DNA of 64,000 bases from Berkelbacteria bacterium GW2011_GWA2_35_9 (GTDB lineage Bacteria > Patescibacteriota > UBA1384 > GWA2-35-9). Position 1 is the first letter of the stretch. Each line of letters begins with the position of its first letter. The notes below the pieces were generated by a model. That model was not told the origin of the DNA and made no database searches. It worked only from the letters and a program-made list of their open reading frames with translations. The position numbers and the translations under genes were made by a program. This document shows positions 553 to 52,360 of this stretch, in pieces. Where the stretch lies: the NCBI GenBank assembly GCA_000991185.1, contig LBRB01000001.1:4080-68079 (forward strand). Direction: 5' to 3'.

Positions 553-631
553 TTGTGACTGTTTAATTTCTCTAAATTATTTGCTAAAATAGAATAGTCA
601 ATCGATTAATATAATAGAGGGAAGTGTTCTT

Positions 632-3459: not shown

Positions 3460-3462
3460 ATT

Positions 3463-6129
3463 ATGCCATTTTTAACTATAGTAATCATTGCTTTAATCGT
3501 TTATGTCAGTATAATTGGCATCGGGATTTTGTGGTGGATGATAATTAAAAATAATCGATCCATTAGTCAAACAGATGACAAAAAATATATATTGCTAGAA
3601 ATATTGGTGCCAAAAAATAATGAGAAAGGACCCTTGGCGGCAGAAAGTATGTTTGCGTCAATGCATGGTATTTTTCAGGAAGCAATCGAAAGTCAAGAGA
3701 AATTAAGTTTTGAAATAGCCTCTAAGGGAAAATTTATTATTTTTTATGCTCATATTCCAGCCCATCTAAAAGATTTTATTGAAGGACAAATTTACTCGCA
3801 ATATCCAACTGTCGAAATATCGGAGGTTAAGGATTATGCATCGGTTGTTATGCGAGATCCAAACCAAAAAGCGATTGTAGGAACTGAATTAAAGTTAAAT
3901 AAAGATTATGTTTTTCCAATAAAAACCTTTTTAAATTTTGAGGTTGATCCGTTATCTAGTATTACTGGAATGTTATCTAAGATTGAAGAAGGGGAGCAAT
4001 TATGGATTCAGATAATTGTTCAGCCAATTGCTGATGATTGGCAAGATAGGGGAGTTAAATATGTTAAATCGGTTAAAGAGACTGGCAAAGGACCAGAAAG
4101 TTTAGAATTTAAAAAAGAATTAAAAAAAAGATTATCCAGTCTATCAAAAGATTTGGCTCAAAGTGCAAAAGGAGTATTTGCCTCGTCATCTGATAGTGCG
4201 TCCAAAGATTCTGGGGGGAAAGATATCGTTTTACCAGGTCCAGTTGAGGCTGCGTTATCAGGTATTAATGAAAAGATTACTAAGCTTGGGTTTTTGACGA
4301 CCATTCGGATAGTGTGTATTTCGAACGATGAAGAATTGTCAAAAAATAAACTCAATGGTTTAGTCGGAGCATTCAAACAATTCAATACAGTCAATTTAAA
4401 TGGTTTTGGAATAAAAGAAATTTTATCTGGTCAGGAAATATTGGAAGAATATATACTACGAAAAACAAATGTCAACGCTTTTGTTCTAAATATTGAAGAA
4501 TTAGCATCGATTTATCATTTGCCGAACATATCGGTTGAAACTCCTTTAATTAGTTGGGCAGGAAGCAAAAAAGGTGAACCACCATCTAATTTGCCAATAA
4601 AAAGCGAAGGGGAAAAGAATATCGTCCCGATTGGAGAAACAAATTTTAGAAATTATCGAATGCAATTTGGGATTAAACAAAAAGATAGGCGATTACACAT
4701 ATATACGATTGGAAAAACCGGAACTGGTAAATCAACGATGCTTGAAAATATGATAATTGATGATATTTTATCGGGAAGAGGAGTGGCTGTAGTTGATCCG
4801 CACGGGGATTTAATTGATCATGTTTTAGAATTTGTGCCGGACAGTCGGATTGATGATGTAGTCTATTTCTCTCCAGCCGATCGAGAGTATCCTGTTGGGT
4901 TTAATCTGCTTGAAAATGTTGATCCTGATTTAAAAAATGTAGTTGCCTCCGGAGTTGTTGGAATATTCAAAAAAATCTTTGGAGAATCATGGGGTCCAAG
5001 ATTAGAGTATATACTCAGAAATGCAGTTTTATCGCTTTTGGATTATCCAGATGCGACGATGCTTGAAATAATTAAAATTTTAATTGATAAAAGTTTTCGC
5101 AAAAAAGTATTAGAGTACGTAAAAGACCCAGTACTATTAGATTTTTGGTTAAACGAATATGATAAATATGATCAAAAATTTAGAACTGAAGCAGTAGCGC
5201 CTATTCAAAACAAGGTCGGACAATTTTTATCAACTACTACTATTCGAAATATAGTTGGGCAGCCGGAATCAACAATTAATTTGAATAATATAATGGATGA
5301 AAGAAAAATTTTATTAATTGATTTATCAATTGGAAAAATAGGGGAGGATACAGCCGCTTTGTTAGGGTCAATGATGATTACAAAAATTCAGCTCTCAGCT
5401 ATGCAAAGAGCTCATATTTCAGAAGCAGAAAGAGTTGATTTTTATTTGTATGTTGATGAGTTCCAAAACTTTGCAACTGATAGTTTTGCGACTATACTTT
5501 CAGAAGCTAGAAAATATCATTTAAATTTAGTGATGACCAATCAATACATAGCTCAGATGCCTGAGATTGTCAAAGAAGCGATATTTGGAAATGTGGGAAC
5601 ATTGATATCATTCAGGGTTGGAGCAGGAGATAGTGAAGCGTTGGTTAAAGAGTTTGAACCAATTTTTGATTCTAACGATTTGGTTAATTTAGCCAATTAC
5701 AATATTTATGTAAAAATGGCGATTGATGGAGTAACATCACCGGCATTCTCGGCAGTTTCATTGGCGCCAAAAAAAGAAGGTTATCATAATCGAGATAAAA
5801 TTATTAATCGTTCACGGGAACAATATGCTAAATCGAGAGAAGAAGTTGAACAAAGACAATCGGATGTTTCAGGACATTTTGATGATGACCAAAATGTTTC
5901 AGACAAGTCAAAAGGAAATAAAATAACTAAAATTGATGATAATATATACCAACAGGATGGTGAAACATTCTTTAATGATGACAAAGGAAACAGATGGTAC
6001 ATACAAAGTAAGACCAAAGACCAAAGATCAAAGACCAAAAAATTACCAAAAGAAGAGAAAATAAATACAATTACAGAGGATAAAATTGATCTTGAAAATG
6101 ACTTGTTGCTACCACTCGATAAATTGTAA
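3463..6129 (+). CDS. Membrane-anchored P-loop ATPase, TraG/VirD4/TrwB-like, paralog 2, with Lys/Asp-rich C-terminal tail
   Basis: 888 aa; 4-nt spacing to upstream gene. Same architecture: TM helix, N-domain motif EELASIYHLP, Walker A YTIGKTGTGKST, DPHGD, YLYVDEFQNF, ARKYHLNL, TNQYIAQM. Low-complexity K/D/Q-rich C-terminus. Confidence 0.6.
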   Translation: MPFLTIVIIALIVYVSIIGIGILWWMIIKNNRSISQTDDKKYILLEILVPKNNEKGPLAAESMFASMHGIFQEAIESQEKLSFEIASKGKFIIFYAHIPAHLKDFIEGQIYSQYPTVEISEVKDYASVVMRDPNQKAIVGTELKLNKDYVFPIKTFLNFEVDPLSSITGMLSKIEEGEQLWIQIIVQPIADDWQDRGVKYVKSVKETGKGPESLEFKKELKKRLSSLSKDLAQSAKGVFASSSDSASKDSGGKDIVLPGPVEAALSGINEKITKLGFLTTIRIVCISNDEELSKNKLNGLVGAFKQFNTVNLNGFGIKEILSGQEILEEYILRKTNVNAFVLNIEELASIYHLPNISVETPLISWAGSKKGEPPSNLPIKSEGEKNIVPIGETNFRNYRMQFGIKQKDRRLHIYTIGKTGTGKSTMLENMIIDDILSGRGVAVVDPHGDLIDHVLEFVPDSRIDDVVYFSPADREYPVGFNLLENVDPDLKNVVASGVVGIFKKIFGESWGPRLEYILRNAVLSLLDYPDATMLEIIKILIDKSFRKKVLEYVKDPVLLDFWLNEYDKYDQKFRTEAVAPIQNKVGQFLSTTTIRNIVGQPESTINLNNIMDERKILLIDLSIGKIGEDTAALLGSMMITKIQLSAMQRAHISEAERVDFYLYVDEFQNFATDSFATILSEARKYHLNLVMTNQYIAQMPEIVKEAIFGNVGTLISFRVGAGDSEALVKEFEPIFDSNDLVNLANYNIYVKMAIDGVTSPAFSAVSLAPKKEGYHNRDKIINRSREQYAKSREEVEQRQSDVSGHFDDDQNVSDKSKGNKITKIDDNIYQQDGETFFNDDKGNRWYIQSKTKDQRSKTKKLPKEEKINTITEDKIDLENDLLLPLDKL

Positions 6130-6194
6130 TAATACCCTGAAAAAATCACTACTTTCGGGGGAGAGGTGAAAAAATCGGGGGAGTGCTCGAAAAA

Positions 6195-6229
6195 GATAAA
6201 AGATTAAAGATAAAAGATAAAAGATTAAA
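6195..6229. repeat. Tandem heptamer repeat GAT(A/T)AAA x5 inside a 535-bp AT-rich non-coding convergent intergenic region
   Basis: gataaaagattaaagataaaagataaaagattaaag seen directly. Confidence 0.5.
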
Positions 6230-6664
6230 GATGAGGTTGGGTCGGGAAAAGAGAGAAATTGCACGAAAAAAAATAATCCTAAAAATTACCAATTTTGAGT
6301 AGGTGAGTACTAATTGTGGATAAAAATACTAAGACGCACAATGGAACTTGTGCGACTTAGTTATATCAAATTTAACAATACGATCAGTCGCTATGTGCTT
6401 ATGTGCGTTGGTAGCTTAAATATATATACAATTATAAATATACATATTTCAACACGAATTATCTTAGATTATATTTGTCTCTATTTTTTACATTCACAGT
6501 ATGACTATATTTGATAATTACCTACTATTTGAGTACTCCTAACAGGTAAAAAACCGCAAATTTGCGATATAAGCAATGATTTTATTATTGATGATAAATT
6601 ACTCGTAAAATATAAAAAAAATTACACAATAATTTGCATATGCAATATGTAAAAATAAAAAAAA

Positions 6665-7552
6665 TTAATTTAGAGGTCGCTTATTGTGCCAAATTACAAT
6701 TAAACTTGCAGCGATAAAAATTGATGAATAAGTACCAATAATAATACCAAATAGTAAAGTAAATATAAAATGTTGTAATGTATTACCACCCAATACAAAA
6801 AGTGCAGACAGGGCGAATATAAGTGTTAATGATGTACTTAGGGATCTAGCAAGAGTTTGGGTTAATGCATGAGAAGTATTAATATAAAAAGAATTTCTAG
6901 GATTTAAAATGACATTTTCCCGAATACGATCAAAGACAACAATTGTATCATGAACCGAAAATCCCATAACAGTCAATATTGCGGTAATAAATAAACTATC
7001 AACTTCATAATTCAAAAAAATGCCGGAAAAGGCGAATGCGCCGGTGGTTATGAAAATGTCGTGTAAAAGTGCCACCACTGCAATAATACCAAAACGCCAA
7101 GCAGAAACAGAATTTGGTAAATTGCGAAATGCATATGCAATATATAAAATTATTGCAAATGAAGCAAAAATTACTGACAGAATTGCTTTATTCTTCAAAC
7201 TTTCAGAAATAGTTGGTCCAACACTTTCAAAACTAAGTTGCTCACTCTCCCCTATCTTGGACAGGTCGTTAATAATTTCGTCTTTAGTCTTTTCATCAAT
7301 TGTTTTAGTTTTGATAATAAAAACATTGTCCTCAGTAGTTTTACTGATAGTAATTGGCAAATCTCTTTTTTGAAAGACTTCTTTGATATTTTCATTGTTC
7401 TCTATTTTACTTCTCAATTCCAGAACACTTCCACCCGTAAAATCAATCCCAATTTTTAATTTATAAAAACTAAGAACAAAGATTGATGCGATTGTAATAA
7501 GCAGACTAAAATAAATAAAGAGATAACGGAATTTTAAAATATCAAATTTCAT
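6665..7552 (-). CDS. secF: Protein-export membrane protein SecF
   Basis: 295 aa; N-terminus MKFDILKFRYLF..IGIDFTGGSVLELR and C-terminal TM bundle typical of SecF; overlaps secD by 4 nt. Confidence 0.9.
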   Translation of the reverse strand: MKFDILKFRYLFIYFSLLITIASIFVLSFYKLKIGIDFTGGSVLELRSKIENNENIKEVFQKRDLPITISKTTEDNVFIIKTKTIDEKTKDEIINDLSKIGESEQLSFESVGPTISESLKNKAILSVIFASFAIILYIAYAFRNLPNSVSAWRFGIIAVVALLHDIFITTGAFAFSGIFLNYEVDSLFITAILTVMGFSVHDTIVVFDRIRENVILNPRNSFYINTSHALTQTLARSLSTSLTLIFALSALFVLGGNTLQHFIFTLLFGIIIGTYSSIFIAASLIVIWHNKRPLN

Positions 7553-8880
7553 ATCGTTTTTTTAATTTTAATTATTTTAATTTTAGGTAATTTTAATTTG
7601 AAATTAGAAAAAAGCAATAACAGTGTTTGCGAAATAGTTATAGCTGAAAACATTGAAACTAATATTCCAATCAGTAGCGTGATCGCAAACCCTCTAACAA
7701 TTCCGGAACCAAACCAGATTAAAATAATTGAAGTAATTATTGTAGAAAAATTTGAATCACGAATAGATGACCAGGCTCGACGAAAACCTTCTTGAATGGC
7801 TGTAATTTTACCTTTTCCCATCTGACTTTCTTCTTTAGTTCTTTCAAAAATTAAAATATTAGCATCAACTGCTGCTCCAATCGACAGAATTAGTCCAGCA
7901 ATTCCAGCTAATGTAATAGTAACAGGTATTAATTTGAAGACCGCCAATACAATAATTATATAGATAAGTAATGCCAAGGATGCGATCACGCCTGATCCTT
8001 TGTATTGGAAAATCATAAATAATGTTACTAAAATAATTGCTACAAAACTGGCAAAAATACTTTTTGAAATTGATTCATTACCTAATTGCGCCCCAACAGT
8101 TCGTTGCGAAATTAATTCAAGTGGAACTGGCAAAGCGCCCGAGTTAAGTGAAATTGAAAGCGAACGAGCTGAGGTTGCATCAAAATTGCCAGAAATTACA
8201 GCATTACCACCGACAATCGCTTCGTTTACATTAGGAGCAGAAACGATTTCATTATCTAAAATAATTGCGACTGGTTTACCGACATTTCGAGTGGTTATTT
8301 CTTCAAACAATTTAGCACCATCACTATTAAATGAGATCGAAACAACCGGCTCAGATTTAATACCTCCAGCTGAATTTCCTGATCCTCCCCCACCTTGATA
8401 TGTAATAGTAGCATTGGATAAATATTTTCCCGTCAACTCAGTTTTTTTCCATTCCTTAGTTACACCATCTCCATTTTCCCCACCCGATTGTTCTTGAAAT
8501 TCTAGATTAGCAGTTTTGCCGACTAAATCTATTGCTTGATTGATATCTTGAATTCCGGGCAATTCAAGTGTAATAATTTTTTGGTTATTTAATGTTCCAG
8601 CTTGGATTACTGGTTCTGATACACCGAGCGAATCAACCCTCTTTCTAATTACCGAGAGTACACTTTCAGTGGCTTGTTGCTTTTGGTTCTCTTCGGTTTT
8701 TGAAAGATCTAGTTTATAGGTTAATTGACTTCCACCAGCAATATCCAAACCTTTAACCAGATCAATTTTTTTAGTTTCATTTAGTATCTTAATGTTTTTG
8801 TTGTTTGGCTTAACAACAAAAACAGCTAAAAAAGTTATCAGAATAATTAAAAAAACTCGCCACAAAATAATTCTTTTCAT
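7549..8880 (-). CDS. secD: Protein-export membrane protein SecD
   Basis: 443 aa; LDIAGGSQLTYKLD periplasmic-domain motif and C-terminal RND-like TM region; operon with secF. Confidence 0.9.
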   Translation of the reverse strand: MKRIILWRVFLIILITFLAVFVVKPNNKNIKILNETKKIDLVKGLDIAGGSQLTYKLDLSKTEENQKQQATESVLSVIRKRVDSLGVSEPVIQAGTLNNQKIITLELPGIQDINQAIDLVGKTANLEFQEQSGGENGDGVTKEWKKTELTGKYLSNATITYQGGGGSGNSAGGIKSEPVVSISFNSDGAKLFEEITTRNVGKPVAIILDNEIVSAPNVNEAIVGGNAVISGNFDATSARSLSISLNSGALPVPLELISQRTVGAQLGNESISKSIFASFVAIILVTLFMIFQYKGSGVIASLALLIYIIIVLAVFKLIPVTITLAGIAGLILSIGAAVDANILIFERTKEESQMGKGKITAIQEGFRRAWSSIRDSNFSTIITSIILIWFGSGIVRGFAITLLIGILVSMFSAITISQTLLLLFSNFKLKLPKIKIIKIKKTI

Positions 8881-8903
8881 ATTAATAAGATAACAAATAA
8901 TAA

Positions 8904-9590
8904 TTATTTCTCAATAGCTGGACCAATTTTATCAATAATTATTTTTAGATCGGCTGGAAGGTCGGATTGAAAATTAAACAATTTATTTTTATATTTAAAG
9001 CCAATTTTATAGCTATGTAAAAATTGTCTTTCCAATTTTAAACCGTCACTCATTCTTTTCGAATCTTTAAAAAAGTATATCTTATCCCCAATTATAGGAT
9101 GGTGTAAATAATTAGCAGTTAATCTAATTTGGTGTGTTCTGCCACTAAAAATTGAAAATTTAACCAATGAGAAATAATTATTTTTATATTGATAATAATG
9201 TTTTACCCGCCAACTTGTTTTAGAACTTCTTAGATCTCCCCTATTTAATTGCGTTGAGTATTGAGTAATTTTCATTGGTTTTTTTCTTTTCGGATCACGG
9301 GAAATATTCAGTTCAACTTGACCGCTATTTTCTAATTTTCCCCAGACCAAACCCAGATACGACTTGTTAACTTTTCTATCTTTAAAAAGTTTTTGAATTG
9401 TAATAAGTGCAGAATTATTTTTAGCAATTACCATTAATCCAGATGTATCTTTATCTAGCCGATGGATTAAACCATTTCTTTCGATATTATTTTTATTATT
9501 AATTTCATCGGCAATTTCAAAAGATTCAACATTCGGGTGTTTATCAACCATATAAAAATCATTATTTTCGTACTTAATTGAATATTTCAT
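8904..9590 (-). CDS. RluA-family pseudouridine synthase
   Basis: 228 aa; catalytic motif GLIHRLDKDTSGLMVIAKN and HQIRLT motif. Confidence 0.85.
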   Translation of the reverse strand: MKYSIKYENNDFYMVDKHPNVESFEIADEINNKNNIERNGLIHRLDKDTSGLMVIAKNNSALITIQKLFKDRKVNKSYLGLVWGKLENSGQVELNISRDPKRKKPMKITQYSTQLNRGDLRSSKTSWRVKHYYQYKNNYFSLVKFSIFSGRTHQIRLTANYLHHPIIGDKIYFFKDSKRMSDGLKLERQFLHSYKIGFKYKNKLFNFQSDLPADLKIIIDKIGPAIEK

Positions 9591-10127: not shown

Positions 10128-10967
10128 CTAAATTTGTCTTTGTGTATCTAAATTAGGTATATTATTCCTGATTCGTTTTATGCCATTTTTTATTAATGCA
10201 TCAACATTTTGGCGATTACAGCCTAGAATTTCAGCAGTTTTCTCAAGGGTTTTAAATTGACCGTCTTCTAATCCATAACGAATTATAATCGCTTCTCTTT
10301 GTTTCTTTGTTGTATTATTTAATAATTTATCAACCTTATCATAATATTGATTTGTTGTCAGATTTTCAACATCATAATCTACGCAAGGAAGGACATCTTG
10401 ATAATTTGGGGGTAGACCATCATGTGTTGATGTATAAAAATGTTGAAATGATATTATTTCCTCAAGGCTCAAGATTGGTGTAATACTATATAGTTTCTTT
10501 GCATATTGATATGCTTCAATACTAATCATTAAACGATCAGCAATCTCTTCATCGCTTAAATGATGGTTTTCACTAACCATCGAAAAATCTTGTATATGAC
10601 ATGCTATCAGTATATACCTAAGAAACTTTTCTGGAATTACAAAATTTTTACAATTATTATTTATATATCTTTTTAACCCCCTGTCAATGGCTGTGCACAC
10701 AAAAGTTGTAATCATGCCTTTATTTTTTTTATATCGTTTCAAAGCTTTAATGGTCAGTAAATAACCCTCTTCTATTAAATCCAACAGATCATCGGGGTTA
10801 TCTGTTAATTTTTTTGCCCTAAAAGTAATAAATTTTCGTAATGAATTGGCTATGATATGAAGAAATTTTATATCCCCAGTTTCAAGATACTTTTCATGAT
10901 AATTTAGTTGTTGTTCATAACTTAAAGTAGCTTCGGAAGAACTATAAAAATATAATACTGATGGCAT
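10128..10967 (-). CDS. Sigma-70 family RNA polymerase sigma factor (divergent)
   Basis: 279 aa; region 2-like DLLDLIEEGYLLTIKALKRYK...FVCTAIDRGLKRYI and region 4 HTH REAIIIRYGLEDGQFKTLEKTAEILGCNRQNVDALIKNGIKRIRN. Confidence 0.7.
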   Translation of the reverse strand: MPSVLYFYSSSEATLSYEQQLNYHEKYLETGDIKFLHIIANSLRKFITFRAKKLTDNPDDLLDLIEEGYLLTIKALKRYKKNKGMITTFVCTAIDRGLKRYINNNCKNFVIPEKFLRYILIACHIQDFSMVSENHHLSDEEIADRLMISIEAYQYAKKLYSITPILSLEEIISFQHFYTSTHDGLPPNYQDVLPCVDYDVENLTTNQYYDKVDKLLNNTTKKQREAIIIRYGLEDGQFKTLEKTAEILGCNRQNVDALIKNGIKRIRNNIPNLDTQRQI

Positions 10968-19171: not shown

Positions 19172-21790
19172 TCATCCGCATTCCGAATGTCCGCAAGAGA
19201 GGCAGAGTTTACAACCTTCTATTCTTTGATACGTAGCTTGTCCACAAGATGGGCAGAGATCAGAGGAAGTTTTGCTTTGAGACAGTTTACCGGTCGAGAT
19301 TAAACTGGCTTGATGAGCGGTTGGATTGTCTGAGCCATTTGAGATATTGTAGTGACTTTCTAAGACTTGACTAATTGCATCCGGCAAGCTCATAACTCTA
19401 TTTTTTCCAAACCCAATACTATTCGATCCTCCAATACTGTGGAGTTGGTTTATGATATATCTAATCCTTTCGTCCCCAGTCACATTTGACGAAAGTCTTA
19501 AGAAAAGAGAAATCAACCTTCCCAATGCTTCTGCCATTGCCTTGATGTCACTCCCCGCTTTTCCAATTTCAACAAATACCTCAAACGGATTGCCTTTCTC
19601 ATCGTCATTCATTGTGACAAAGGCAGTGCCGGTGGGAGTTTTTTTACTGACAGTTGCCCCATGGAGTGTTTCTGGACGGGGGCGGATTGGTTTTTCATCA
19701 ACAGTAGTTTTTACTTCTTTATCGTCCTTTTTTAGCGACAAAATTTGTTCGTCTCGAGAGCCATCTCGATAAATTGTTCCACCCTTACAACCCAAATCGT
19801 AAAGTAATTCGTAAAGTTTTTTTGTATCTTCTAAGGTGTAATTATTCGGCGTATTGCAAGTTTTTGAAATACTTGAATCCACCCACTTTTGGATTGCCGC
19901 TTGAACCCTAACATGATCTTCTGGAGTCATGTCCATGGCGGTTGTAAAGTAATCAGGCAGTTTTTCGTCTTTATGGTTTCGTTTCCAATCTTCGTAAACT
20001 GCAACTTGTTCATCGTGGATTCCGAGTCGGCTTTTTCTTTGATAAACCCAGCTGTAAAACGGTTCGATGCCGGTTGATGTCCCAACCATAGTTCCGGTTG
20101 TACCGTTCGGAGCTTGGGTTAAAAGTGTAACATTTCGAATTCCATATTTAACCACCAAATCTCTAATTTCTTGAGGCATAGCTTTCATAAAACCACTCTC
20201 GATATGTTTTTCAGCGATAAACTGTGGAAAGGCGCCTTTCTCGATTGCCAAACCGATTGACGCTTTATAGACAATTGTCGTTAAAAACCGATAAAGTTTA
20301 TCGATAAAATCAAGCGATTCTTGGCTTCCGTAGCGGATTTTCTTTTTGATTAAGAGCTCGGCTAGCCCCATCGTATTTAATCCTACTCGGCGCTCGCCTT
20401 GTTGTTGGGTTTTGTTTTCATCCATAAAATATGGAGTGGCGTCAATAATATTATCTAAGAATCGGGTTGAGTATTGAGCCGCAATTTCGAGTCTTTTCCA
20501 ATCTACATCTTGAGTTTCTTTATTATAAAACTTGGCTAGATTGATAGCTCCTAAATTACACACACCAAAGCCGGGCAAACCTTGTTCTCCGCAAGGGTTA
20601 GTCCCGATGATGTTAGCAAAATAATATGAGTTACTCATCTTATTGGTTCTCTCGATGAAAAATAGACCCGGCTCAGCCGATGCCCAAGCTGAACCAATTA
20701 TTTTGTCCCACATTTCTCGAGCTTTGATAGTTTTGTAAATTTTGACTTTCCCACCATTCTTCTCCCACTCATCAATATCTCCATTCCATTCTTTGTTGTA
20801 TTTTTCTTCGCTGAAATCAGGAAATTTCAATTGCCAGTCACCGTCTTTTTTCAATTGATCCATGAATTTATCACTTACGGCAACGGAAATATTAGCATTG
20901 TTAATTTTCCCAGCGACTCGTTTGCTATCAATAAAATCATAAACATCTGGGTGCCAATCGTTGAGCATCAACATGAGAGCGCCTCGACGAGAACCACCTT
21001 GCTCAATCAGTCCAGTCGCAAAAGAGTACAATGCACCCCAAGAAACCGAACCAGACGATCTACCATTTACACCTTTGACATAAGCGTGTTTAGGTCGGAG
21101 GGTTGAGATATTTATTCCGACCCCCCCGCCTCGAGAAAATATTTCAGTCATAATTCCGAGAGTTTTAATTATCCCCTCTCTCGAATCTCGAGGAGATGGA
21201 ATTACATAACAGTTATAGTAAGTTAATTTTTGATTAGTTCCAGCAGCAGCCAAAATCCTTCCTGCTGGTACAAATTTCCAGTCGTCCAGTAGCCAACGGA
21301 ATTTCTTTTGCCAACTAACTTGCAGTTCTTTAGTTTTTTCTACTTTCGAAACCCCTTGTGAAATTCGATCCAACATTTGATCAGGAATTGTTTCGCTTGG
21401 TATGTCGATATCAGTAATCTCACTTTCCACCATCGTTCCGTCGTAAAGTTTAATTGAAACTTTACTATTAGTTAAGAATTTTTCAATATGTCCAATTTCT
21501 TTTTGTCTGGTATTGATATCAACACAGACGATTGCCTTATCTCCAACATTCAAATTGGTTTTAGATGCGTCTTTGAGAGCGTAACGGTCCAAAAATATTT
21601 TCTCTCCCAGTTCGCCTAGTTCAGTTGATCCAATAATATCTAATTTAAAATCTGGTTTACGATTTAAATTAAGATGAGGGTCGATTTGAGGTGCAGGATT
21701 TTGCTTTATGGTAGTTGGTTTATTATTAAAACCTTTATTGTTTTTCGACACTATTTCGATAGGCTTTAAGCCAAAATCGCTATTATTCAT
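19172..21790 (-). CDS. nrdJ: Class II (adenosylcobalamin-dependent) ribonucleotide reductase with C-terminal zinc ribbon
   Basis: 872 aa; active-site NPCGEQ, thiyl-radical loop, C-terminal CPSCGQATYQRIEGCKLCLSCGHSECG; RBS aaggaggg. Confidence 0.85.
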   Translation of the reverse strand: MNNSDFGLKPIEIVSKNNKGFNNKPTTIKQNPAPQIDPHLNLNRKPDFKLDIIGSTELGELGEKIFLDRYALKDASKTNLNVGDKAIVCVDINTRQKEIGHIEKFLTNSKVSIKLYDGTMVESEITDIDIPSETIPDQMLDRISQGVSKVEKTKELQVSWQKKFRWLLDDWKFVPAGRILAAAGTNQKLTYYNCYVIPSPRDSREGIIKTLGIMTEIFSRGGGVGINISTLRPKHAYVKGVNGRSSGSVSWGALYSFATGLIEQGGSRRGALMLMLNDWHPDVYDFIDSKRVAGKINNANISVAVSDKFMDQLKKDGDWQLKFPDFSEEKYNKEWNGDIDEWEKNGGKVKIYKTIKAREMWDKIIGSAWASAEPGLFFIERTNKMSNSYYFANIIGTNPCGEQGLPGFGVCNLGAINLAKFYNKETQDVDWKRLEIAAQYSTRFLDNIIDATPYFMDENKTQQQGERRVGLNTMGLAELLIKKKIRYGSQESLDFIDKLYRFLTTIVYKASIGLAIEKGAFPQFIAEKHIESGFMKAMPQEIRDLVVKYGIRNVTLLTQAPNGTTGTMVGTSTGIEPFYSWVYQRKSRLGIHDEQVAVYEDWKRNHKDEKLPDYFTTAMDMTPEDHVRVQAAIQKWVDSSISKTCNTPNNYTLEDTKKLYELLYDLGCKGGTIYRDGSRDEQILSLKKDDKEVKTTVDEKPIRPRPETLHGATVSKKTPTGTAFVTMNDDEKGNPFEVFVEIGKAGSDIKAMAEALGRLISLFLRLSSNVTGDERIRYIINQLHSIGGSNSIGFGKNRVMSLPDAISQVLESHYNISNGSDNPTAHQASLISTGKLSQSKTSSDLCPSCGQATYQRIEGCKLCLSCGHSECG

Positions 21791-45078: not shown

Positions 45079-45759
45079 TTATTTAAATTGTTTTATAAAT
45101 CGAATATCGTTTTGATACGGCAAGCGGATATCTTTAATACCATAATACAACATCATTAAACGATTTATTCCCATACCAAAAGCAAAACCTTGAAATATTT
45201 TCGGATCAATATGCATATTTTTTAAAACCTCTGGATGGATCATACCACTCCCCATCACTTCAAGCCATTTGTTTTCAAAAAATATATCAAAGTCCATACC
45301 CGGCTCAACAAAAGGATAGTAATGAGGACGAGTTCTAACCTTGATTGAACCTCCATAGATTTTTTTAAGTATATATTCAATCGTGCCTTTTAAATCAGCC
45401 AGTGTAATATTTTTATCAATTGCAAAACCTTCAAATTGATCAAAAACTGCTTCGTGAGTAGCATCGGTTTTTTCATTTCTATAAACTCGACCGGGAATAA
45501 CGATTCGAGCTGGTGGTTGGCGATTTTCCATAGAACGGACTTGACCAGCTGATGTTTGGGTGCGTAAAACTTTTTTATCGCTTAACCAAAAAGTGTCTTG
45601 CTCATCTCGTGCCGGATGATTAGCTGGAACTAATAACGAATCAAAATTATACCACTCGCTTTCGATTTCTGGTGTTTCAACCACCTCAAAACCTAGCTCC
45701 TCAAAAAGCTTGACTAAATAGCTAGTGAATTGGGTAATTGGGTGAAGTGTGCCTTGCAT
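45079..45759 (-). CDS. pheS: Phenylalanyl-tRNA synthetase alpha subunit (short form)
   Basis: 226 aa; class II core motifs (FRVYRNE..., GFAFGMGINRL). Confidence 0.85.
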   Translation of the reverse strand: MQGTLHPITQFTSYLVKLFEELGFEVVETPEIESEWYNFDSLLVPANHPARDEQDTFWLSDKKVLRTQTSAGQVRSMENRQPPARIVIPGRVYRNEKTDATHEAVFDQFEGFAIDKNITLADLKGTIEYILKKIYGGSIKVRTRPHYYPFVEPGMDFDIFFENKWLEVMGSGMIHPEVLKNMHIDPKIFQGFAFGMGINRLMMLYYGIKDIRLPYQNDIRFIKQFK

Positions 45760-45761
45760 AA

Positions 45762-46145
45762 TTAATTATTTAAAATTGCTTTGATAAAAAATTCTAACAA
45801 AATTGCAATAAAAATCAAAATACATGCTTGAAGTGTATTTAGAACATTTAATGAATTTAAGCCGAGCAAACTGACAATCAGAACCGATAAAATTGTTGCT
45901 TGGCGAATACTGATAGAAATATTAGTATTGATGCTATTTTTTGAAAAAAGATTAATTCGAACGAATATCATAATCATTGTTAATATCCCAGATAACCAAA
46001 AAAACAGAGTGCCAAAAAAACTTAATATTGCCAGTATGTCACCTGAAAATGGATCAAAGTTATAGAGAATATAGATCCAAATTGCAAATGCAACAAGTGT
46101 TGAAGAAAAAATTGAGAATAGATTATATTTAATTCTTTCTGTCAT
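45762..46145 (-). CDS. Small integral membrane protein, hypothetical
   Basis: 127 aa, 4 predicted TM helices; no family recognised. Confidence 0.4.
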   Translation of the reverse strand: MTERIKYNLFSIFSSTLVAFAIWIYILYNFDPFSGDILAILSFFGTLFFWLSGILTMIMIFVRINLFSKNSINTNISISIRQATILSVLIVSLLGLNSLNVLNTLQACILIFIAILLEFFIKAILNN

Positions 46146-46458
46146 CGGTAGTATTTAACATTTTATCAATATTTTCAGTTGAATTATCAACCACAAATTC
46201 TAAAATTGGAGTAAACTTGAGTGGCACTTTATCGGCAATAATGCGTTGAAAATGAGATTTATTTTTATTCAATTTATCAACATAATCTTCGACATTAATT
46301 AAGGAATTGATATAGACTTTTGCGTGACGAAAATCTTTATCTGCATCAACGCCGGTAACCGTAACCAAACTATTGTCATTACTAAAATATTCTAGCATTT
46401 CCAACGCTAGCTGTTTCTGCATTTCACTATTAACCCGATCAATCCGATTTGAATTCAT
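46129..46458 (-). CDS. rbfA: Ribosome-binding factor A
   Basis: 109 aa; RIDRVNSEMQKQLALEM...VTVTGVDADKDFRHAKVYI KH-like motif. Confidence 0.75.
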   Translation of the reverse strand: MNSNRIDRVNSEMQKQLALEMLEYFSNDNSLVTVTGVDADKDFRHAKVYINSLINVEDYVDKLNKNKSHFQRIIADKVPLKFTPILEFVVDNSTENIDKMLNTTDDRKN

Positions 46459-46579
46459 TACTCATATAATATCAGATAATCCTCAATTTTAAAATACACC
46501 TCGGAGGTGGCGAGAGACTCCTGCGAGGTGTGAACACGGTTCCTTGAATTATTCCAAGATAAAGCGTATTATTTAATCT

Positions 46580-47197
46580 ATGGTAAAACAAAATACGAAT
46601 ACTCAAAAAGAATTAAAAGTTCCATTCAATTTTAAGGTTCGTAACAAAGGTTGTGCTCTTGCGTGTGTTGAAATGATAATGAGTTATTATCATCAAAATA
46701 TTGATGTAGATAAAATTTACAAATCTCTTGCAATGAGCAATGACGGTTTAGATTTATTTGAAGTTGCATCTGAACTATCTCGCATAGGATATCAAATTAA
46801 TGGTGGGTTTACTGATGAAGATATTACCTTTGGAGTAAAAAATCATGTTGAATTAATAAATGATAAAATTTTAAAAAAAATTGATAAAAATCTAGTTGAA
46901 GCATATAAAGGTATTTTGATGACAATGGATAAAAATAAAAATATAAAAATTCATAGACTAGTGCTTAGAGATATTAAAGAATCAATAGATAAAAACGAGC
47001 CTATCATAATAAATTTACTATCGAAAGGAAAAAACGAATTTATGCATTCGGTCTGTGTGATTGGGTATAATGAAAACGATATTGTGATTCTTAATCCACC
47101 CAAGATTGGAAAAGAGTATATACAGATGGAAACATTTTTTAATCTTCACCAAGAATCAGGTGGTTATTATTTTTCAATAAAGAGACGGAGCATCTGA
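46580..47197 (+). CDS. Stand-alone papain-like C39-family cysteine peptidase domain protein
   Basis: 205 aa; catalytic Cys context NKGCALACVEMIMSYY and His context HSVCVIGYNENDIVILNP typical of peptidase C39; no ABC transporter fusion. Confidence 0.6.
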   Translation: MVKQNTNTQKELKVPFNFKVRNKGCALACVEMIMSYYHQNIDVDKIYKSLAMSNDGLDLFEVASELSRIGYQINGGFTDEDITFGVKNHVELINDKILKKIDKNLVEAYKGILMTMDKNKNIKIHRLVLRDIKESIDKNEPIIINLLSKGKNEFMHSVCVIGYNENDIVILNPPKIGKEYIQMETFFNLHQESGGYYFSIKRRSI

Positions 47198-47208
47198 CGA
47201 TGCTCCGT
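47185..47208. terminator. 10-bp hairpin acggagcatc-tgac-gatgctccgt overlapping C39 stop; plausible bidirectional terminator
   Basis: Perfect inverted repeat seen directly; U-rich tract only on minus-strand reading. Confidence 0.4.
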
Positions 47209-47227
47209 TAATATTGGGTGTTCTCGG

Positions 47228-47410
47228 TCACATGTTCCACCAGCCTTTGCTCGATCCCGATTTTCCAGTACTAGAGCTTGACTTTTTTGTGGATGATGAA
47301 GTATTCGCTTGCTTGGTTTTGGCGTTTGTGCCAAAATTTCTGCTATCTTTCATCCCACTTGACCGAACCTTAGGTCGAGGAGATCCACCAGAACCCTTGG
47401 TTTTACTCAT
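47228..47410 (-). CDS. Small basic Ser/Lys/Gly-rich protein (60 aa), hypothetical
   Basis: Start placed at the second Met (47410); consensus RBS AAGGAGGTG 7 nt upstream. GC-rich; sequence MSKTKGSGGSPRPK...SSSTGKSGSSKGWWNM. Confidence 0.4.
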   Translation of the reverse strand: MSKTKGSGGSPRPKVRSSGMKDSRNFGTNAKTKQANTSSSTKKSSSSTGKSGSSKGWWNM

Positions 47411-47589
47411 GGTTTTCACCTCCTTGATATCCAAATGAGCATATTATCACATATTGAATATTAAATGTCAATAGAAAAAACTAATAAAACAAAACCCTGC
47501 ACGCTATTTTCGAGGAACCATACGGAGCCCCACATGCAAGGATTTACTTGTAATCACTTTCGTGATCAATATAATTGTATAGTAAGTGG

Positions 47590-47607
47590 TCAACTTATGT
47601 CAATAGC
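47590..47607. repeat. Direct repeat copy ACTTATGTCAATAGCAAA (upstream of fic)
   Basis: 17/18 identical to 48742-48759; related copy AATGTCAATAGAAAAAA at ~47464 and partial TTGTCAATATATGTCA at ~47645. Confidence 0.55.
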
Positions 47608-47808
47608 AAATACTTAAAAAGACAATATCCCCATACCCCAATTTGTCAATATATGTCATTATTGTCACAGTTGTTAGTTTATGTTTATTTTACTCCTTAC
47701 TCCTCACTTTTTACTCCTTACTCCTTCCCCTCGACAACAGACAGGTAAAGGGTAGGATACCTCAAAACCGTGAAAATGTAGTATATTTTTGTGTTTTTCA
47801 CGGTTTTG

Positions 47809-47837
47809 TTGACAAAAACATAAAATACTGCTATAAT
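47809..47837 (+). promoter_or_regulatory. Consensus sigma-70 promoter TTGACA-17-TATAAT; predicted leaderless transcript for fic
   Basis: -10 ends 9 nt before the ATG at 47847, no RBS; 9-bp inverted repeat CCGTGAAAA-N20-TTTTCACGG (47768-47805) abuts the -35. Confidence 0.55.
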
Positions 47838-47846
47838 ATAGTCAAT

Positions 47847-48728
47847 ATGACTAAAATACTTAATGTTTATAATAAGATAAATACCCTTAGAGAAAGATAC
47901 TACAAAGCCTCAGCTGGTAAAGAATCGTTGATTTCTCTAATTCTTGAAACTGAAGTGGCGGAGCAGGTATATAACTCAAATGCGATAGAGAATAGCACCC
48001 TTAGCCTTGAAGAAACAGAAAAAATATTACTCCAGATTGACTTAGACAGGTATATTACTGAGCGAGAAATATTTGAAGCAAAAAACCTTGCTCGAGTCGT
48101 ATCGTATATTGAAACAAGAGCCAAAGAACAAGAACTAACTCTTGATGTGATCTTATTACTTCACAAAATGTTGATTACTAATATTAGGGATGAGGTTGCT
48201 GGAAGATTCAGAAATGATAACGAATTTGTCCGAGTCGGAAATCATATTGCCCCTAACCCCAAAGAAGTGTTTAAGCTACTCGATAAAATGCTAGTACAAT
48301 ATAATGGCTCAAGCCACGATAATATAATTAAAAGAATTGCCAGATTTCATCTAGCGTTTGAAAGTATTCACCCATTTGTCGATGGTAATGGTCGTATTGG
48401 AAGAGTTCTAAATAATTATTTGTTAATTAGGGAAGGGTTTGTCCCAATCAACATTAAATTTATTGACCGAAAAAAATATTATAATGCTTTTAAAGAGTTT
48501 GATAACAATGGCTCAACGAGCATTATGGAAGAGATCGTTGGGAGAGCGTTAACTAATAGTTATTACAAAAGATTGGCTTATCTAGAAGGTAAAAAGATTA
48601 TTACTCTGTCAAACTACGCTAAGGAAAACAAATTATCTCATTCCAACCTAATTAACAAAGCCAACCGGCAGACTATCGAAGCGTTTCTAGAAAAAAATAT
48701 CTGGAAAATCACCAAGGATTATAAGTAA
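47847..48728 (+). CDS. Fic/Doc family protein (class II, N-terminal inhibitory motif), likely AMP-transferase
   Basis: 294 aa from Met at 47847; ORF-track start 47643 is a hydrophobic upstream extension before the promoter. Fic motif HPFVDGNGRIGR; inhibitory motif SNAIEN near N-terminus. Confidence 0.85.
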   Translation: MTKILNVYNKINTLRERYYKASAGKESLISLILETEVAEQVYNSNAIENSTLSLEETEKILLQIDLDRYITEREIFEAKNLARVVSYIETRAKEQELTLDVILLLHKMLITNIRDEVAGRFRNDNEFVRVGNHIAPNPKEVFKLLDKMLVQYNGSSHDNIIKRIARFHLAFESIHPFVDGNGRIGRVLNNYLLIREGFVPINIKFIDRKKYYNAFKEFDNNGSTSIMEEIVGRALTNSYYKRLAYLEGKKIITLSNYAKENKLSHSNLINKANRQTIEAFLEKNIWKITKDYK

Positions 48729-48741
48729 GTAAATCAGCACC

Positions 48742-48759
48742 CACTTATGTCAATAGAAA
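48742..48759. repeat. Direct repeat copy ACTTATGTCAATAGAAAA (downstream of fic)
   Basis: Matches 47590-47607; the pair brackets the ~1.15-kb fic cassette including its promoter. Confidence 0.55.
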
Positions 48760-48841
48760 AAAATAAAAGATAATAATTACCATGCAACTATCCGAAAACG
48801 AAAAACGGGATATAGAAAATAAATCTTAATATTAAACAACT

Positions 48842-49726
48842 ATGTCAGAAGAACAAAAAAGAATATTGGAAAAACAGTTGTGGGGCGTGGCGAATGCGCT
48901 CCGTGGCAAGATGAACGCCGACGAGTATAAAAACTATATTCTCGGTTTTATTTTCTACAAATACCTGTCCGAAAAGCTTGAGCGCTATGTCAACGAAAAG
49001 ATTATCTCAGGCGAAGATTTCACTTTTGCCCAAATTAAGGAGAAAACCAAACAAGGTCAAGAAGACATTGGGCATATCAAGATCGCCTGTATTGGGCATC
49101 TTGGTTATTTCCTCAAGCCTACTGAATTATTTTCGTATATCGTCAAAAAGGGCAAAGGCGAGATAAAAGATCAACCCAAATTCATCCTTGAAGATATTAA
49201 AAAGATTTTAGATGCGATAGAAAAAACATCTGCCAATACCGACAGCGAAGATGATTTTAAGGGACTTTTTGACGATGTTGACCTGACCTCGACTAAACTT
49301 GGTTCGCGGGAAAGCGAGAAAAACGAAGTTGTCGTGGAAGTGCTAACTCTACTTAGCGGAATTGACTTTAAGCTGGAGGACGCCAAAAGCGACCTACTCG
49401 GCGATGCCTACGAATATCTCATTGGTGAGTTTGCTGCTGGCGCCGGTAAAAAAGGCGGCGAATTTTACACCCCCGCCCAAGTTTCTCGCTTGTTAGCGCA
49501 AATAGTATCGCTCGATAAAAAGCGGCTCAAATCCGCCTACGATGCAACTTGCGGGTCAGGATCTCTTTTGCTCCGTCTTGGCGAGTTTACTGATGTTGTT
49601 AATTACTATGGTCAGGAACTTAACCCGACCACCTACAACCTTGCCCGAATGAATATGATTTTGCACGGTGTCCATTTTGATCATTTGAGGCGTAATGTCA
49701 AAATTGGTGGGCTGGTCATAACTTGA
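48842..49726 (+). pseudogene. hsdM: Type I restriction-modification methyltransferase subunit HsdM, 3'-truncated by IS insertion
   Basis: N-terminal HsdM domain (LWGVANALRGKM..YKNYILGFIFYKYLS), DATCGSGSLL (motif I), NMILHG. ORF then runs into the IS left inverted repeat and stops. Catalytic NPPF half and hsdS/hsdR are absent. Confidence 0.75.
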
Positions 49727-50744
49727 TTGTGATATAATTGAACCTTAAAATAAAAGTCTAATTACAGGAGATTGTAACAATGAGAAAAAAAATGTCTATA
49801 TTGTGGTTCAAGTAAAACTAAAAAGAACGGTCGAAGATATGACCGCCAATGCTATTTATGCAGAGTCTGTGGCAAACGATTTCAAAGTAAAAATAGATCC
49901 ACTAAATTAGCTCGTGTTATCTGGCACTCATATACCTTCAAGCGACAAAAGCTCTCCGATCTAGCTAAAGATTATGGTAAAAGTATCAATTGGATCAAGA
50001 AGCAGATCAAGTCAGTTGAGATTAAACCCAGGATCAAAGTAGAACTAATTACACCCGAACCTACGGTCATCGTCGTTGACAGCACCTTTTTCAAAAGAGT
50101 CTTTGGTATTATGGTAGTTCGCAGTGTTCATCTTAAACAAAACATCTAACGGAAAGAAATTATTAACGAAACGATTAGTGAATATCTCTTTGCCAGAACC
50201 ACCATCGAACAACAGGGCTGGCTTATTAAGGGAGTTGTTTTGGACGGCAGGATAGGCGCCAAGCGAGTCTTTGCCGATATTCCGGTGCAGATGTGTCAGT
50301 TCCACCAAAAACAGATCATCAACCGTTATTTAACATTAAATCCGATCCTTCCCGCTAGTATTGAGTTGCGAAAGATTGTCCAGTCCTTATGCCAAACTAA
50401 TCTAATTACCTTTACTAACCAATTAGATGCTTGGCAGAAATGGGGAATCTTTATCAAAGAAAAGACCAAGGACACAATTAACCCAAGGAGATGGCACTAC
50501 ACTCACGGAAGAACACGGTCAGCCTATCAAAGCTTAATGACCAATCTGCCTTACTTGTTTACTTACCAGAAGTATCCCGAGCTACACATACCAAACACTA
50601 CCAATTCACTGGATGGCTACTTTTCCCACTTAAAGGAATTAACTAAGTTACATAGAGGATTAAACAAGCAAACAAAAAGAAAAATGATTAAAGAAATATT
50701 AGCTAAAAATAGCTAAAACAGCCCACCAATTTTGACATTACGCC
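49689..50744 (+). mobile_element. Insertion sequence (~1056 bp) with perfect 26-bp terminal inverted repeats GGCGTAATGTCAAAATTGGTGGGCTG; IS1595-like
   Basis: IRL 49689-49714 and IRR 50719-50744 are exact reverse complements (read directly); encloses zinc-ribbon+DDE transposase reading frame; no target-site duplication detected. Confidence 0.7.
49780..50716 (+). pseudogene. IS1595-family-like transposase (zinc ribbon CxxC-x16-CxxC + DDE domain), disrupted
   Basis: ATG at 49780 with RBS aggag. Frame switch needed in A8 run (49785-49792) to reach zinc-ribbon frame (CLYCGSS...CRVCGKRF, VIVVDSTFFKR). In-frame TAA at 50147-50149. C-terminal part is track ORF 50240-50716 (TTG). Confidence 0.55.
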
Positions 50745-50751
50745 ACTATTT

Positions 50752-51852
50752 ATGGAAATTGAACAATTAATAAATAAACAGGGGGAAATTGTGAACAAAC
50801 CTAAAAGACAATGGTTAAAGTGGATAGGAGTTCTCGTATTAATACTGATAGTGCTTTCTGCTATGGAGCATTTTGGATTGGTGCCGAAAAAACCGGAAGT
50901 ACAGATTTCGGCGCTCGGGAAAAAACAAATCAACTGCCAGCGAACTTTTACGCCTAAATACTCAAGCGGACCTTACTACAACGGACCATTGTTTGACGAC
51001 CACTTTCATCTGCCATTTTCGCCCGGGATGCGATCTTTTTTTGTTAAAATGCCGACACTTGGCGAAGGCAAAGATGTAACTATAAACGAAATTCTCTGCA
51101 ATTTTGACCGGGAAAAATCCAGTGGTGCGTTGACTTTCTATATGCCAAAAAGCACCAATAAAGTAACCATCCCGCAAGCCAATGAAATTAAAAACTACAC
51201 AGATAAAATTAATTTGTTTGTCTCACCAGCTATAATCAAGCCCAAAGATTTAGAAAAAATCATTAAAGAAAATCCGGGTCTATTTGTGGGTATTGGCGAG
51301 ATCGGTTTTTATGAGTTTACCAACAAATGGCGACCGATAAATGGCAGATGGGCGAATGAAATCTACAATATTTCCGATACATACAATTTGCCGGTGATGA
51401 TCCACTCGGGAAAGGGTCAGCAGGAACAGGTTGAAAATGTGTTAGCTAGTTATCCGAATGTGACATTTCTCTTGCACGGGCACGAAAGTGCGCAATATAT
51501 TACCGAGCTGATGGGAACCTTCACAAATATTTACTATTCCGTCGATGGCGCTTCGCTCTACTCAATGCGAGGAGCGATGGTCAGATCGGGCTACGACGAT
51601 TATGTTGCCGGATTCAAAAATGAGTTTACATCGCTTATTGACGAAGGAATCAGTTTTTGGCGCGACAAGATAGGCGAATATCCAGACCGATTCATACTTG
51701 GCACTGACCGTGGTGGCACAGGACATTACAGCGAGGAGTTTAGTCAGCTGACAGAAGAATTTTCACGAGCATTTATCGGCGGACTCGACAAAAGCGTCCA
51801 AGAAAAATTTGCTCATCAAAATGCAGAAAAGTTTTTGAATATTAATAAATAA
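50752..51852 (+). CDS. Membrane-anchored amidohydrolase-like (TIM-barrel metal-dependent hydrolase) protein
   Basis: 366 aa; N-terminal TM helix; HxH (FDDHFHLPF), LLHGHES, LGTDRGG Asp consistent with amidohydrolase-2 ligand pattern; GC-richer than core genome. Confidence 0.45.
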   Translation: MEIEQLINKQGEIVNKPKRQWLKWIGVLVLILIVLSAMEHFGLVPKKPEVQISALGKKQINCQRTFTPKYSSGPYYNGPLFDDHFHLPFSPGMRSFFVKMPTLGEGKDVTINEILCNFDREKSSGALTFYMPKSTNKVTIPQANEIKNYTDKINLFVSPAIIKPKDLEKIIKENPGLFVGIGEIGFYEFTNKWRPINGRWANEIYNISDTYNLPVMIHSGKGQQEQVENVLASYPNVTFLLHGHESAQYITELMGTFTNIYYSVDGASLYSMRGAMVRSGYDDYVAGFKNEFTSLIDEGISFWRDKIGEYPDRFILGTDRGGTGHYSEEFSQLTEEFSRAFIGGLDKSVQEKFAHQNAEKFLNINK

Positions 51853-51958
51853 TATCGTTATAATCCTTATAAACAAACGGTACTATGCTATATAGTAGAG
51901 TACCAAACATATTTTTCTCAGTTCTTTTCTATGCTGTTTAATACTTATCTCAAAACTC

Positions 51959-52360
51959 TTACCGTTTTGACCATTGTGGGGCTTTGCGAGCACTTTTGAG
52001 TCCCGGTTTTTTGCGTTCTTTTTCTCTCGAATCACGAGTTAAATAGCCAAGTTTTCTAAGAGTTGGCTTTAAAGTTTCGTCATAATCAACTAGAGCACGA
52101 GCTATTCCCATTGTAATGGCATCTTTTTGTGAGCTGAACCCCCCACCTTTTGTAATAATTGAAATTGAAAATTTGCTATCCATACCAACCGATTTAAAAA
52201 CATCCTCAATATATTTATCAAAATTATCAATTTCTTTTTTATTGATGGTTGAAGTTCTTTTTGATTTATAAATACGGACAGTTGCAACAGTTCTTTTTCT
52301 TCTTCCAGTGCCTTGATAATATTGTCTCTTTACATTTTTAGTTTCAGTCATTTTTAACAA
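51959..52360 (-). CDS. rpsI: 30S ribosomal protein S9
   Basis: 133 aa; C-terminus ARKAPQWSKR. Confidence 0.9.
   Translation of the reverse strand: MLKMTETKNVKRQYYQGTGRRKRTVATVRIYKSKRTSTINKKEIDNFDKYIEDVFKSVGMDSKFSISIITKGGGFSSQKDAITMGIARALVDYDETLKPTLRKLGYLTRDSREKERKKPGLKSARKAPQWSKR

Follow-up and report, generated by a model that had tools for sequence, protein, structure and literature searches.

The 64,000-nucleotide stretch of Berkelbacteria contig LBRB01000001.1 analyzed here (the window) carries, between the housekeeping genes rpsI and rbfA, a block of 5,448 bp (positions 46510-51957) that is very probably a real but ordinary mosaic genomic island in a genome of the Candidate Phyla Radiation (CPR, Patescibacteria). 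Rather than working as one machine, the island documents successive rounds of gene entry and decay at a junction that tolerates insertions: judged from their reading frames, its type I restriction system and its insertion sequence (IS) are dead, while the units likely to be expressed are a Fic protein, a C39-like peptidase, a small basic protein, and a membrane-anchored hydrolase. The original prediction had placed a GC-richer island of acquired cargo at 46460-51950, which matches the blastn breakpoints at 46509 and 51958 almost exactly. The foreign origin that it proposed stands, whereas arrival as one piece does not, and a multistep mosaic takes its place.

Borders, empty sites, and reuse of the rpsI/rbfA junction

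The nearest relatives of the source genome are the Crystal Geyser "Candidatus Berkelbacteria," at 82-83% nucleotide identity by blastn (RpoA 90% and RbfA 88% identical). On the right flank, the alignment to their contigs is unbroken from window position 63919 down to 51958, one base before the rpsI stop codon, and on the left flank it runs from ~36.5 kb up to 46509, the end of a 51-nucleotide rbfA leader that matches eight Crystal Geyser contigs at 91% identity. Both homology edges are identical in every contig among the loci of 14 relatives compared by blastn, and the interval between them has no counterpart in the nearest relatives, nor does any part of it have a homologue at the rpsI/rbfA junction in any relative examined. 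Sliding identity along the flanks stays even, at 0.76-0.90, right up to both borders, and it revealed no tract of different recombination ancestry beside either of them. The sole transfer RNA (tRNA) gene found in a scan of the window lies at 35414, with none at either border, and the island contains no integrase and has no direct repeats at its edges. Insertion at a tRNA gene and flanking repeats are typical of integrase-borne islands but are not required of a genomic island.

Empty sites were sought in metagenome contigs anchored on ribosomal protein S9, which were then searched for the proteins of the window's left flank. In 12 more distant relatives (S9 46-57% identical), S9 is followed, co-directionally and colinearly, by at least one of RbfA, a 127-amino-acid membrane protein, PheS, and PheT. 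The rpsI stop codon and the rbfA start codon are 28 nucleotides apart in L035 and 42 nucleotides apart in L036, the two loci in which open reading frames (ORFs) were read, and the tblastn matches to the rpsI and rbfA sides end ~50-125 nucleotides from each other in L035, L029, L033, and L036. Because the genes of the two sides are colinear and co-directional in these 12 loci, with such short gaps in L035 and L036, sequence comparison indicates that the ancestral state is a compact rplM-rpsI-rbfA-membrane protein-pheS-pheT array, which the island has split, and the predicted insertion between rbfA and rpsI is thus borne out.

An assembly or binning chimera, with foreign reads joined between two true Berkelbacteria segments, could be suspected, given that the source is a metagenome-assembled genome, that the block contains an IS and is unlike its flanks in composition, and that contigs of the closest relatives break at this same junction. 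We consider this extremely unlikely, as a 19,140-bp JGI contig from a different sample (L112) spans rbfA, the island, and rpsI, crosses both junctions, and differs at only 3 of 19,053 bp, without gaps (99.98%). Four further short contigs (L113-L116, from MEGAHIT and other assemblies) cover the internal boundaries of the IS with the hsdM fragment and with the amidohydrolase gene at 99.5-100%. Moreover, a repeat-induced misjoin is not expected, because the IS is single-copy in the window; no second copy was found in any fetched locus either. In GenBank, the island proteins are KKP89219-KKP89223, encoded on a scaffold of 110,555 bp.

The rpsI/rbfA junction behaves as a recurrently used hotspot of cargo turnover. 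The DNA after rpsI in a Crystal Geyser relative encodes, in convergent orientation, a type III restriction-modification system comprising a ResIII helicase of 835 amino acids, a 186-amino-acid membrane protein, and an N6_N4 methylase, at which the contig ends. Type III res and mod genes follow rpsI in L001, L020, and L021, and the C terminus of res does so in L022, a contig from the Hainich aquifer with the same res gene after rpsI as at Crystal Geyser. On the other side of the junction, Crystal Geyser contigs carry an rve-type transposase (366-375 amino acids) before rbfA, with three different continuations beyond it and many contigs breaking there, and the Hainich contig L108 has lexA in that place; no LexA homologue was found elsewhere in the window. 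Other small inserts occupy the junction in more distant genomes, namely, a gene for a 530-amino-acid membrane protein in L023 and a PaaX-like gene in L031. The junction therefore holds different defense systems, type III res-mod in the Crystal Geyser and Hainich relatives versus a type I hsdM remnant and Fic here, and in a tblastx comparison with the relatives' cargo, nothing of their type III system, rve insertion sequence, or lexA was recognizable in the island. Because the Crystal Geyser lineage has both breakpoints of the window but other cargo beyond them, the simplest reading would be that the junction opened in their common ancestor and that its content has since been replaced.

Several minor features of these loci were also recorded. 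The rpsI-rbfA spacer of L041 is filled by five tandem copies of a 17-amino-acid (51-nucleotide) unit (10402-10860), followed by a small ferredoxin-like ORF. An rve transposase precedes rbfA in L100, L101, and L107, and L107 joins it to a homologue of window positions 559-2690, which lie 44 kb away in the genome of the window; the varied continuations of rve in Crystal Geyser contigs may reflect either a multicopy IS causing rearrangement or assembly ambiguity. In L022, rpsI is preceded not by rplM but by a different ORF (16-637), taken by eye for the C terminus of a phage terminase, and the S9 protein of this contig begins with a Cys-rich extension, MKCKRCKREIIK.

Gene content of the island

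The six genes that had been named from the sequence (a C39 peptidase, a small Ser/Lys-rich ORF, Fic, a truncated hsdM, an IS, and a membrane amidohydrolase) were all found where they had been placed, as were the minus-strand housekeeping genes at both borders. The features of the region are as follows.

46129-46458, minus strand: rbfA, left flanking core gene, outside the island (Pfam RBFA, E 1.2e-18; product 100% identical to RbfA of Berkelbacteria bacterium GW2011_GWA2_35_9)
46459-46509, minus strand: rbfA leader of 51 nucleotides, common to relatives, with a promoter-like site and the hairpin CACCTCGGAGGTG
46580-47197, plus strand: stand-alone C39-like cysteine peptidase, 205 amino acids (PF03412, E 7.8e-14; PF13529, E 5.2e-10)
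47185-47208, minus strand: strong hairpin terminator shared by the C39 gene and the small ORF, which converge on it (10-pair stem with 6 G-C pairs, then a T-rich tail)
47228-47407 (ORF to 47434), minus strand: small basic Ser/Lys-rich protein, 59 amino acids, likely true start at ATG 47407
47443-47471, minus strand: promoter-like TTGACA-17-GATAAT site upstream of the small ORF, with an extended TG (11/12 consensus matches)
47465-47474, 47597-47606, and 48747-48756, plus strand: three copies of ATGTCAATAG, the only exact copies in the window
47809-47837, plus strand: perfect consensus promoter TTGACA-17-TATAAT with TG (12/12 matches), ending 9 nucleotides before the Fic ATG
47847-48728, plus strand: class II Fic protein, 293 amino acids (PF02661, E 1.8e-22)
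48842-~49688, plus strand: 5' 62% of a type I restriction-modification hsdM, truncated at codon ~283 (HsdM_N and the first third of N6_Mtase)
49689-50744, plus strand: decayed IS256-family element (Zn-binding variant), 1,056 bp, with perfect 26-bp terminal inverted repeats
49780-50716, plus strand: transposase pseudogene, disrupted by a +1 frameshift (A8 run, 49785-49792) and by a TAA stop in frame (50147-50149)
50752-51852, plus strand: intact gene for a membrane-anchored, amidohydrolase-superfamily TIM-barrel hydrolase, 366 amino acids (AlphaFold2 model, pLDDT 90.7)
51879-51904: palindrome that may terminate both the amidohydrolase gene and rpsI, which converge on it (inverted repeat I9, 88% complementary)
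51959-52360, minus strand: rpsI, right flanking core gene, outside the island (Pfam Ribosomal_S9, E 2.6e-34)

The hsdM fragment confirms the predicted restriction-modification remnant. Only HsdM residues 1-283 are left, corresponding to positions 3-280 of the 515 in TIGR00497, and these align to HsdM proteins of 454-464 amino acids at 77-82% identity. Motif I (DATCGSG) is kept and motif IV (NPPF/Y) is absent, so that the fragment cannot be an active methylase, and the island contains neither hsdS nor hsdR and hence no complete type I restriction-modification system. The best relatives of the fragment (73-85%) belong to a "Patescibacteria group bacterium" wherever they are named, and the next tier, at ~60%, to Bacteroidota and others.

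Because one contig of 49.5% GC (L118) carries hsdM at 77% identity and a Fic gene at 78% over all 293 residues ~2 kb apart, the two genes are most simply taken, from their sequences, as parts of one type I restriction-modification neighborhood. Upstream of hsdM, L118 also contains two tandem Phage_integrase genes directly adjoining it, an arrangement that may be shufflon-like, and it contains a second, divergent Fic gene (both within 818-9377).

The Fic protein appears to be intact and of the self-inhibited AMP-transferase type. It carries the Fic motif HPFVDGNGRIGR at residue 175 (canonical HPFxDGNGRxxR) and, N-terminally in the same chain, the inhibitory motif SNAIEN at residue 44, which aligns with TVAIEGN of FICD; its best PDB relatives are FICD structures, and the alignment crosses the inhibitory Glu. 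The island protein thus shares with class II Fic proteins of the FICD/HYPE type both HPFxDGNGRxxR and an N-terminal (S/T)xxxE(G/N), but it lacks the transmembrane and TPR regions of FICD. Among defense-associated Fic proteins, it matches both the PDC-S04 (1.8e-34) and SoFic (1.3e-28) profiles of PADLOC, although it falls far below the NCBIfam SoFic equivalog cutoff (43.9 versus 550 bits). It is a class II, self-inhibited Fic that forms part of a type I restriction-modification neighborhood, and its description as an effector is unsupported. A role in antiphage defense or stress is plausible, which makes it a candidate for such a function. Fic is also the sole intact PADLOC match of the island: the restriction-modification system is dead, and no PADLOC profile recognized the C39 peptidase, the small ORF, or the amidohydrolase. 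A phage origin is unsupported, because scans of IMG/VR viral contigs with Fic and with the C39 protein gave no relatives.

The promoter of the Fic gene is preceded by a perfect 14-nucleotide inverted repeat (47763-47808). The sole Rfam match, mir-308 (E 0.047), was rejected as a chance match to this hairpin, and at both gathering and permissive thresholds Rfam gave no RNA gene in the GC-rich noncoding stretches. The three copies of ATGTCAATAG cluster around the Fic gene, which copies 2 and 3 bracket. They were considered as att-like cassette ends, and this was rejected as their main reading since each copy holds a minus-strand TTGACA box, in two of the three with a good -10 hexamer. They may be promoters, operator sites, or relics of a cassette junction.

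The hsdM gene is cut at codon 283 by the IS. Its inverted repeats (49689-49714 and 50719-50744) have an expected chance count of 0, and its transposase, once the frame had been repaired to 311 amino acids, matches NF048019, "IS256 family transposase, variant Zn-binding type," over model positions 2-300 of 304 (E 2.4e-90; 302.9 bits against a cutoff of 150). The element thus has in common with this type the full-length profile match, an N-terminal four-cysteine zinc-binding region, and terminal inverted repeats, and it differs in having a pseudogene transposase and no target-site duplication, the flanking 8-mers TCATTTGA and ACTATTTA being different. The frameshift and the TAA codon both recur in the independent assembly L112 and are therefore not sequencing errors of a single assembly. 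The frameshift is a one-base insertion in the A8 run directly after the transposase start codon, where slippage could in principle restore the frame, although the downstream TAA would still stop the protein. A longer, 44-nucleotide inverted repeat (49671-49714 and 50719-50762) was at first considered for the ends and trimmed to the perfect 26 nucleotides, as HsdM homology reaches codon 283 (nucleotide ~49690) and the alignment to the L110 gene described below puts the amidohydrolase start at 50752.

With its right end 7 nucleotides before the start codon of the amidohydrolase gene, the IS abuts another gene of foreign affinity. The encoded protein is predicted to be a (beta/alpha)8 barrel of the Amidohydro_2/TatD-like superfamily, in which HxH and Asp serve as metal ligands. 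Foldseek assigns its model a probability of 1.0 to 3cjp, 4i6k, and 1zzm (TatD-type), while its single-sequence Pfam scores lie just below the cutoffs (24.5 versus 27 and 23.3 versus 26.4); the HxH motif is at residue 84, residues H84, H86, H218, H242, and D319 are invariant in 32 homologues, and a single N-terminal transmembrane helix spans residues 20-40. The gene is 82% identical in nucleotides and 85% in amino acids to one on L110, a scaffold of 38% GC from the ANAN16-1 metagenome assemblies (ENA) that represents a related but distinct CPR genome, and the homology is limited to the ORF. Other L110 proteins are only 53% (TspO) and 42% (UvrD/PD-(D/E)XK helicase) identical to their window orthologues, a mismatch that directly indicates movement of the amidohydrolase gene between lineages. 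Together with the Patescibacteria affinity of HsdM and the linkage of Fic and hsdM in L118, this provides donor-side evidence for the horizontal origin of three genes.

At the opposite end of the island, the C39-like peptidase is predicted to be cytoplasmic and apparently intact. Both domain scores are above their cutoffs (PF03412, 52.1 bits against 22; PF13529, 40.5 bits against 24), and no transmembrane window and no PDB sequence relative were found for the protein. It shares the C39 domain with bacteriocin-processing peptidases but, in contrast to these, stands alone, as the island has no ATP-binding cassette (ABC) transporter, neither fused to the peptidase nor adjoining it, and no recognizable leader substrate; the small protein beside it has GSGG at residues 6-9 but no recognized double-glycine leader consensus.

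The small ORF is probably a real gene. In addition to its promoter-like site, it has an AAGGAGG Shine-Dalgarno sequence 7 nucleotides before the ATG at 47407, and its product has one distant homologue, P0234 (56 amino acids), which shares GG[SA]PRPKVRSSGMK (E 6.6e-4 library-wide and 3e-13 pairwise). PADLOC, Pfam, and NCBIfam searches with the protein gave no match. A function as the antitoxin of Fic was rejected, because the protein is devoid of glutamate and the inhibitory SxxxE(G/N) motif requires one. The ORF is missing from the GenBank/NCBI annotation, and JGI placed a gene on the opposite strand instead.

Composition and proposed assembly of the mosaic

The window as a whole has 32% GC, and the composition of the island is neither uniform with it nor uniform within itself. 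Against a background of the 58 genes outside the island, in which GC content at third codon positions (GC3) has a mean of 0.228 ± 0.040 and a maximum z of 2.8, the small ORF (0.45), the hsdM fragment (0.46), the transposase remnant (0.47), and the amidohydrolase gene (0.43) deviate with z = 5.0-5.9. Fic is intermediate (GC3 0.32, z = 2.2), and the C39 gene is host-like (GC 27.8%, GC3 0.20, z = -0.7). The predicted GC-richer island thus exists as a stretch of foreign composition confined to ~47150-51860, which leaves out the C39 gene; this AT-rich gene would be either an older insert or one from a separate source. In tetranucleotide distance, the most deviant part of the window is 48.5-52 kb, level with a ribonucleotide reductase gene at 19-21.5 kb. 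The latter gene (19172-21790, minus strand; barrel and TSCPD domains) has a GC3 of 0.34 and a z of 2.8, which may mark it as another case of horizontal acquisition or simply reflect constraint.

This patchwork leads us to propose a stepwise history. A type I restriction-modification neighborhood that included the class II Fic gene would have come from a GC-richer Patescibacterium, after which an IS256-family element would have interrupted hsdM at codon 283. The rest of hsdM, together with hsdS and hsdR, may then have been lost by an IS-associated deletion or by IS-IS recombination, an event that would have left the IS end 7 nucleotides upstream of the amidohydrolase gene, itself of foreign CPR origin; the lack of a target-site duplication, the closeness of the IS to the amidohydrolase gene, and the absence of hsdS and hsdR beyond it are the pattern to be expected from such an adjacent deletion or recombination. 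Finally, the transposase would have decayed through one frameshift and one stop codon. For entry, we favor DNA uptake followed by homologous recombination through the conserved flanks.

Several observations weigh against this history and against the junction readings on which it draws. No entry mechanism is visible in the island sequence. In L118, Fic lies downstream of and convergent with hsdM, whereas in the window it lies upstream and co-directional, and the GC3 of Fic is lower than that of hsdM (0.32 versus 0.46), despite their proposed joint arrival. Synteny alone is the ground for taking the 12 empty-site loci as related CPR lineages, at S9 identities of 46-57%. For the closest relatives, the sequences next to rpsI and next to rbfA come from separate contigs, so that the two sides may or may not be adjacent there and the cargo seen may be partial, and with the nearest relative at ~83% nucleotide identity, the timing and number of acquisition events can only be inferred.

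Another possibility is that the whole block came in one event from one donor, as a remnant of an integrative element or as one transformed fragment, and inherited its heterogeneity from there. The near-equal GC3 of hsdM', the IS, and the amidohydrolase gene (0.43-0.47) would fit such a transfer, as would the two clean breakpoints, and truncation by the IS could already have taken place in the donor, before the transfer. We nevertheless judge a single event to be distinctly unlikely, given the spread of GC3 from 0.20 (C39) through 0.32 (Fic) to 0.46 and given that the nearest relatives of the modules lie in different genomes: Fic and hsdM in L118, at 49.5% GC, and the amidohydrolase in L110, at 38% GC, neither of which carries the other module. 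In L110, moreover, the amidohydrolase gene sits among core-like genes, without IS or hsdM.

Alternatively, the block might be native to the Berkelbacteria clade and have been lost or replaced in the sampled relatives, with its composition reflecting gene-specific constraint. In favor of this view, the C39 gene is host-like in composition, the Crystal Geyser lineage has the same rbfA leader and the same two breakpoints (implying a junction already open in the common ancestor), and a core gene, that for ribonucleotide reductase, also deviates in composition. We hold it to be very unlikely, as protein constraint does not explain a GC3 z of 5-6 at third positions and the amidohydrolase is 85% identical to its L110 counterpart, while other orthologues in that genome reach only 42-53%; moreover, a cut-off hsdM and a defunct IS are hardly the functional content that a clade conserves, and the cargo of the relatives shares nothing with the island by tblastx. 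We therefore retain the stepwise mosaic, in which the order of events and the entry by recombination are the conditional parts.

Relation to known islands and defense hotspots

Genomic islands, as predicted by IslandViewer, are known in aquifer Patescibacteria/CPR, and one of them has a complete type I restriction-modification system (PMC12455944, mSystems 2025). The island described here has in common with these the kind of organism, the habitat, an atypical composition, restriction-modification cargo, and exchange mostly among Patescibacteria. It differs in that it is a small (5.4-kb) mosaic, in that its restriction-modification system has been cut by an IS to a 5' hsdM fragment, and in that its insertion point is known to the nucleotide, with the empty site seen in relatives. 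What it adds to the known islands is this nucleotide-level empty site in a ribosomal-protein/rbfA array and the presence of different restriction systems at one junction in sister lineages; it reveals no new kind of element or mechanism. Its value may lie in being a nucleotide-level case of foreign DNA entering and decaying inside a ribosomal-protein gene array, with one intergenic junction reused by different restriction systems in sister lineages, and thus a clean, small example for the study of gene exchange between Patescibacteria and perhaps a locus on which surveys of their accessory and defense genes could be anchored.

Defense-island hotspots between conserved core genes have been described for Escherichia, Pseudomonas, and Vibrio. 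The junction studied here likewise has a fixed position between core genes, lineage-specific cargo of defense type, and no integrase, but it lies inside the ribosomal-protein/rbfA array of an ultrasmall genome, is sampled in three close lineages, and holds much cargo that is decayed or not known to be defensive. It is conceivable, though we find it doubtful, that the rpsI/rbfA junction is a lineage-wide defense hotspot of Berkelbacteria and related CPR and that the C39 peptidase, the 59-amino-acid protein (with PRPKVRSSGMK), and the amidohydrolase are uncharacterized defense or counterdefense genes. CPR bacteria have tiny genomes and few recognized defense systems, and if the junction were such a hotspot, it could act as a "bait" locus for CPR immune systems.

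Two further observations concern genes of the window away from the island. Near the start of the window, two adjoining plus-strand genes (976-3459 and 3463-6129) encode proteins of 827 and 888 amino acids that both show a weak TrwB/DUF87/TraG-D_C pattern, as in coupling-protein-like ATPases. In the left flank, PheS is a short form of 226-227 amino acids that comprises the catalytic core only (window 45079-45759, minus strand; L035 1468-2151; L100-L107), and this short length is kept in all close relatives and in L035, whereas the corresponding ORF of L031 is longer, at 273 amino acids.

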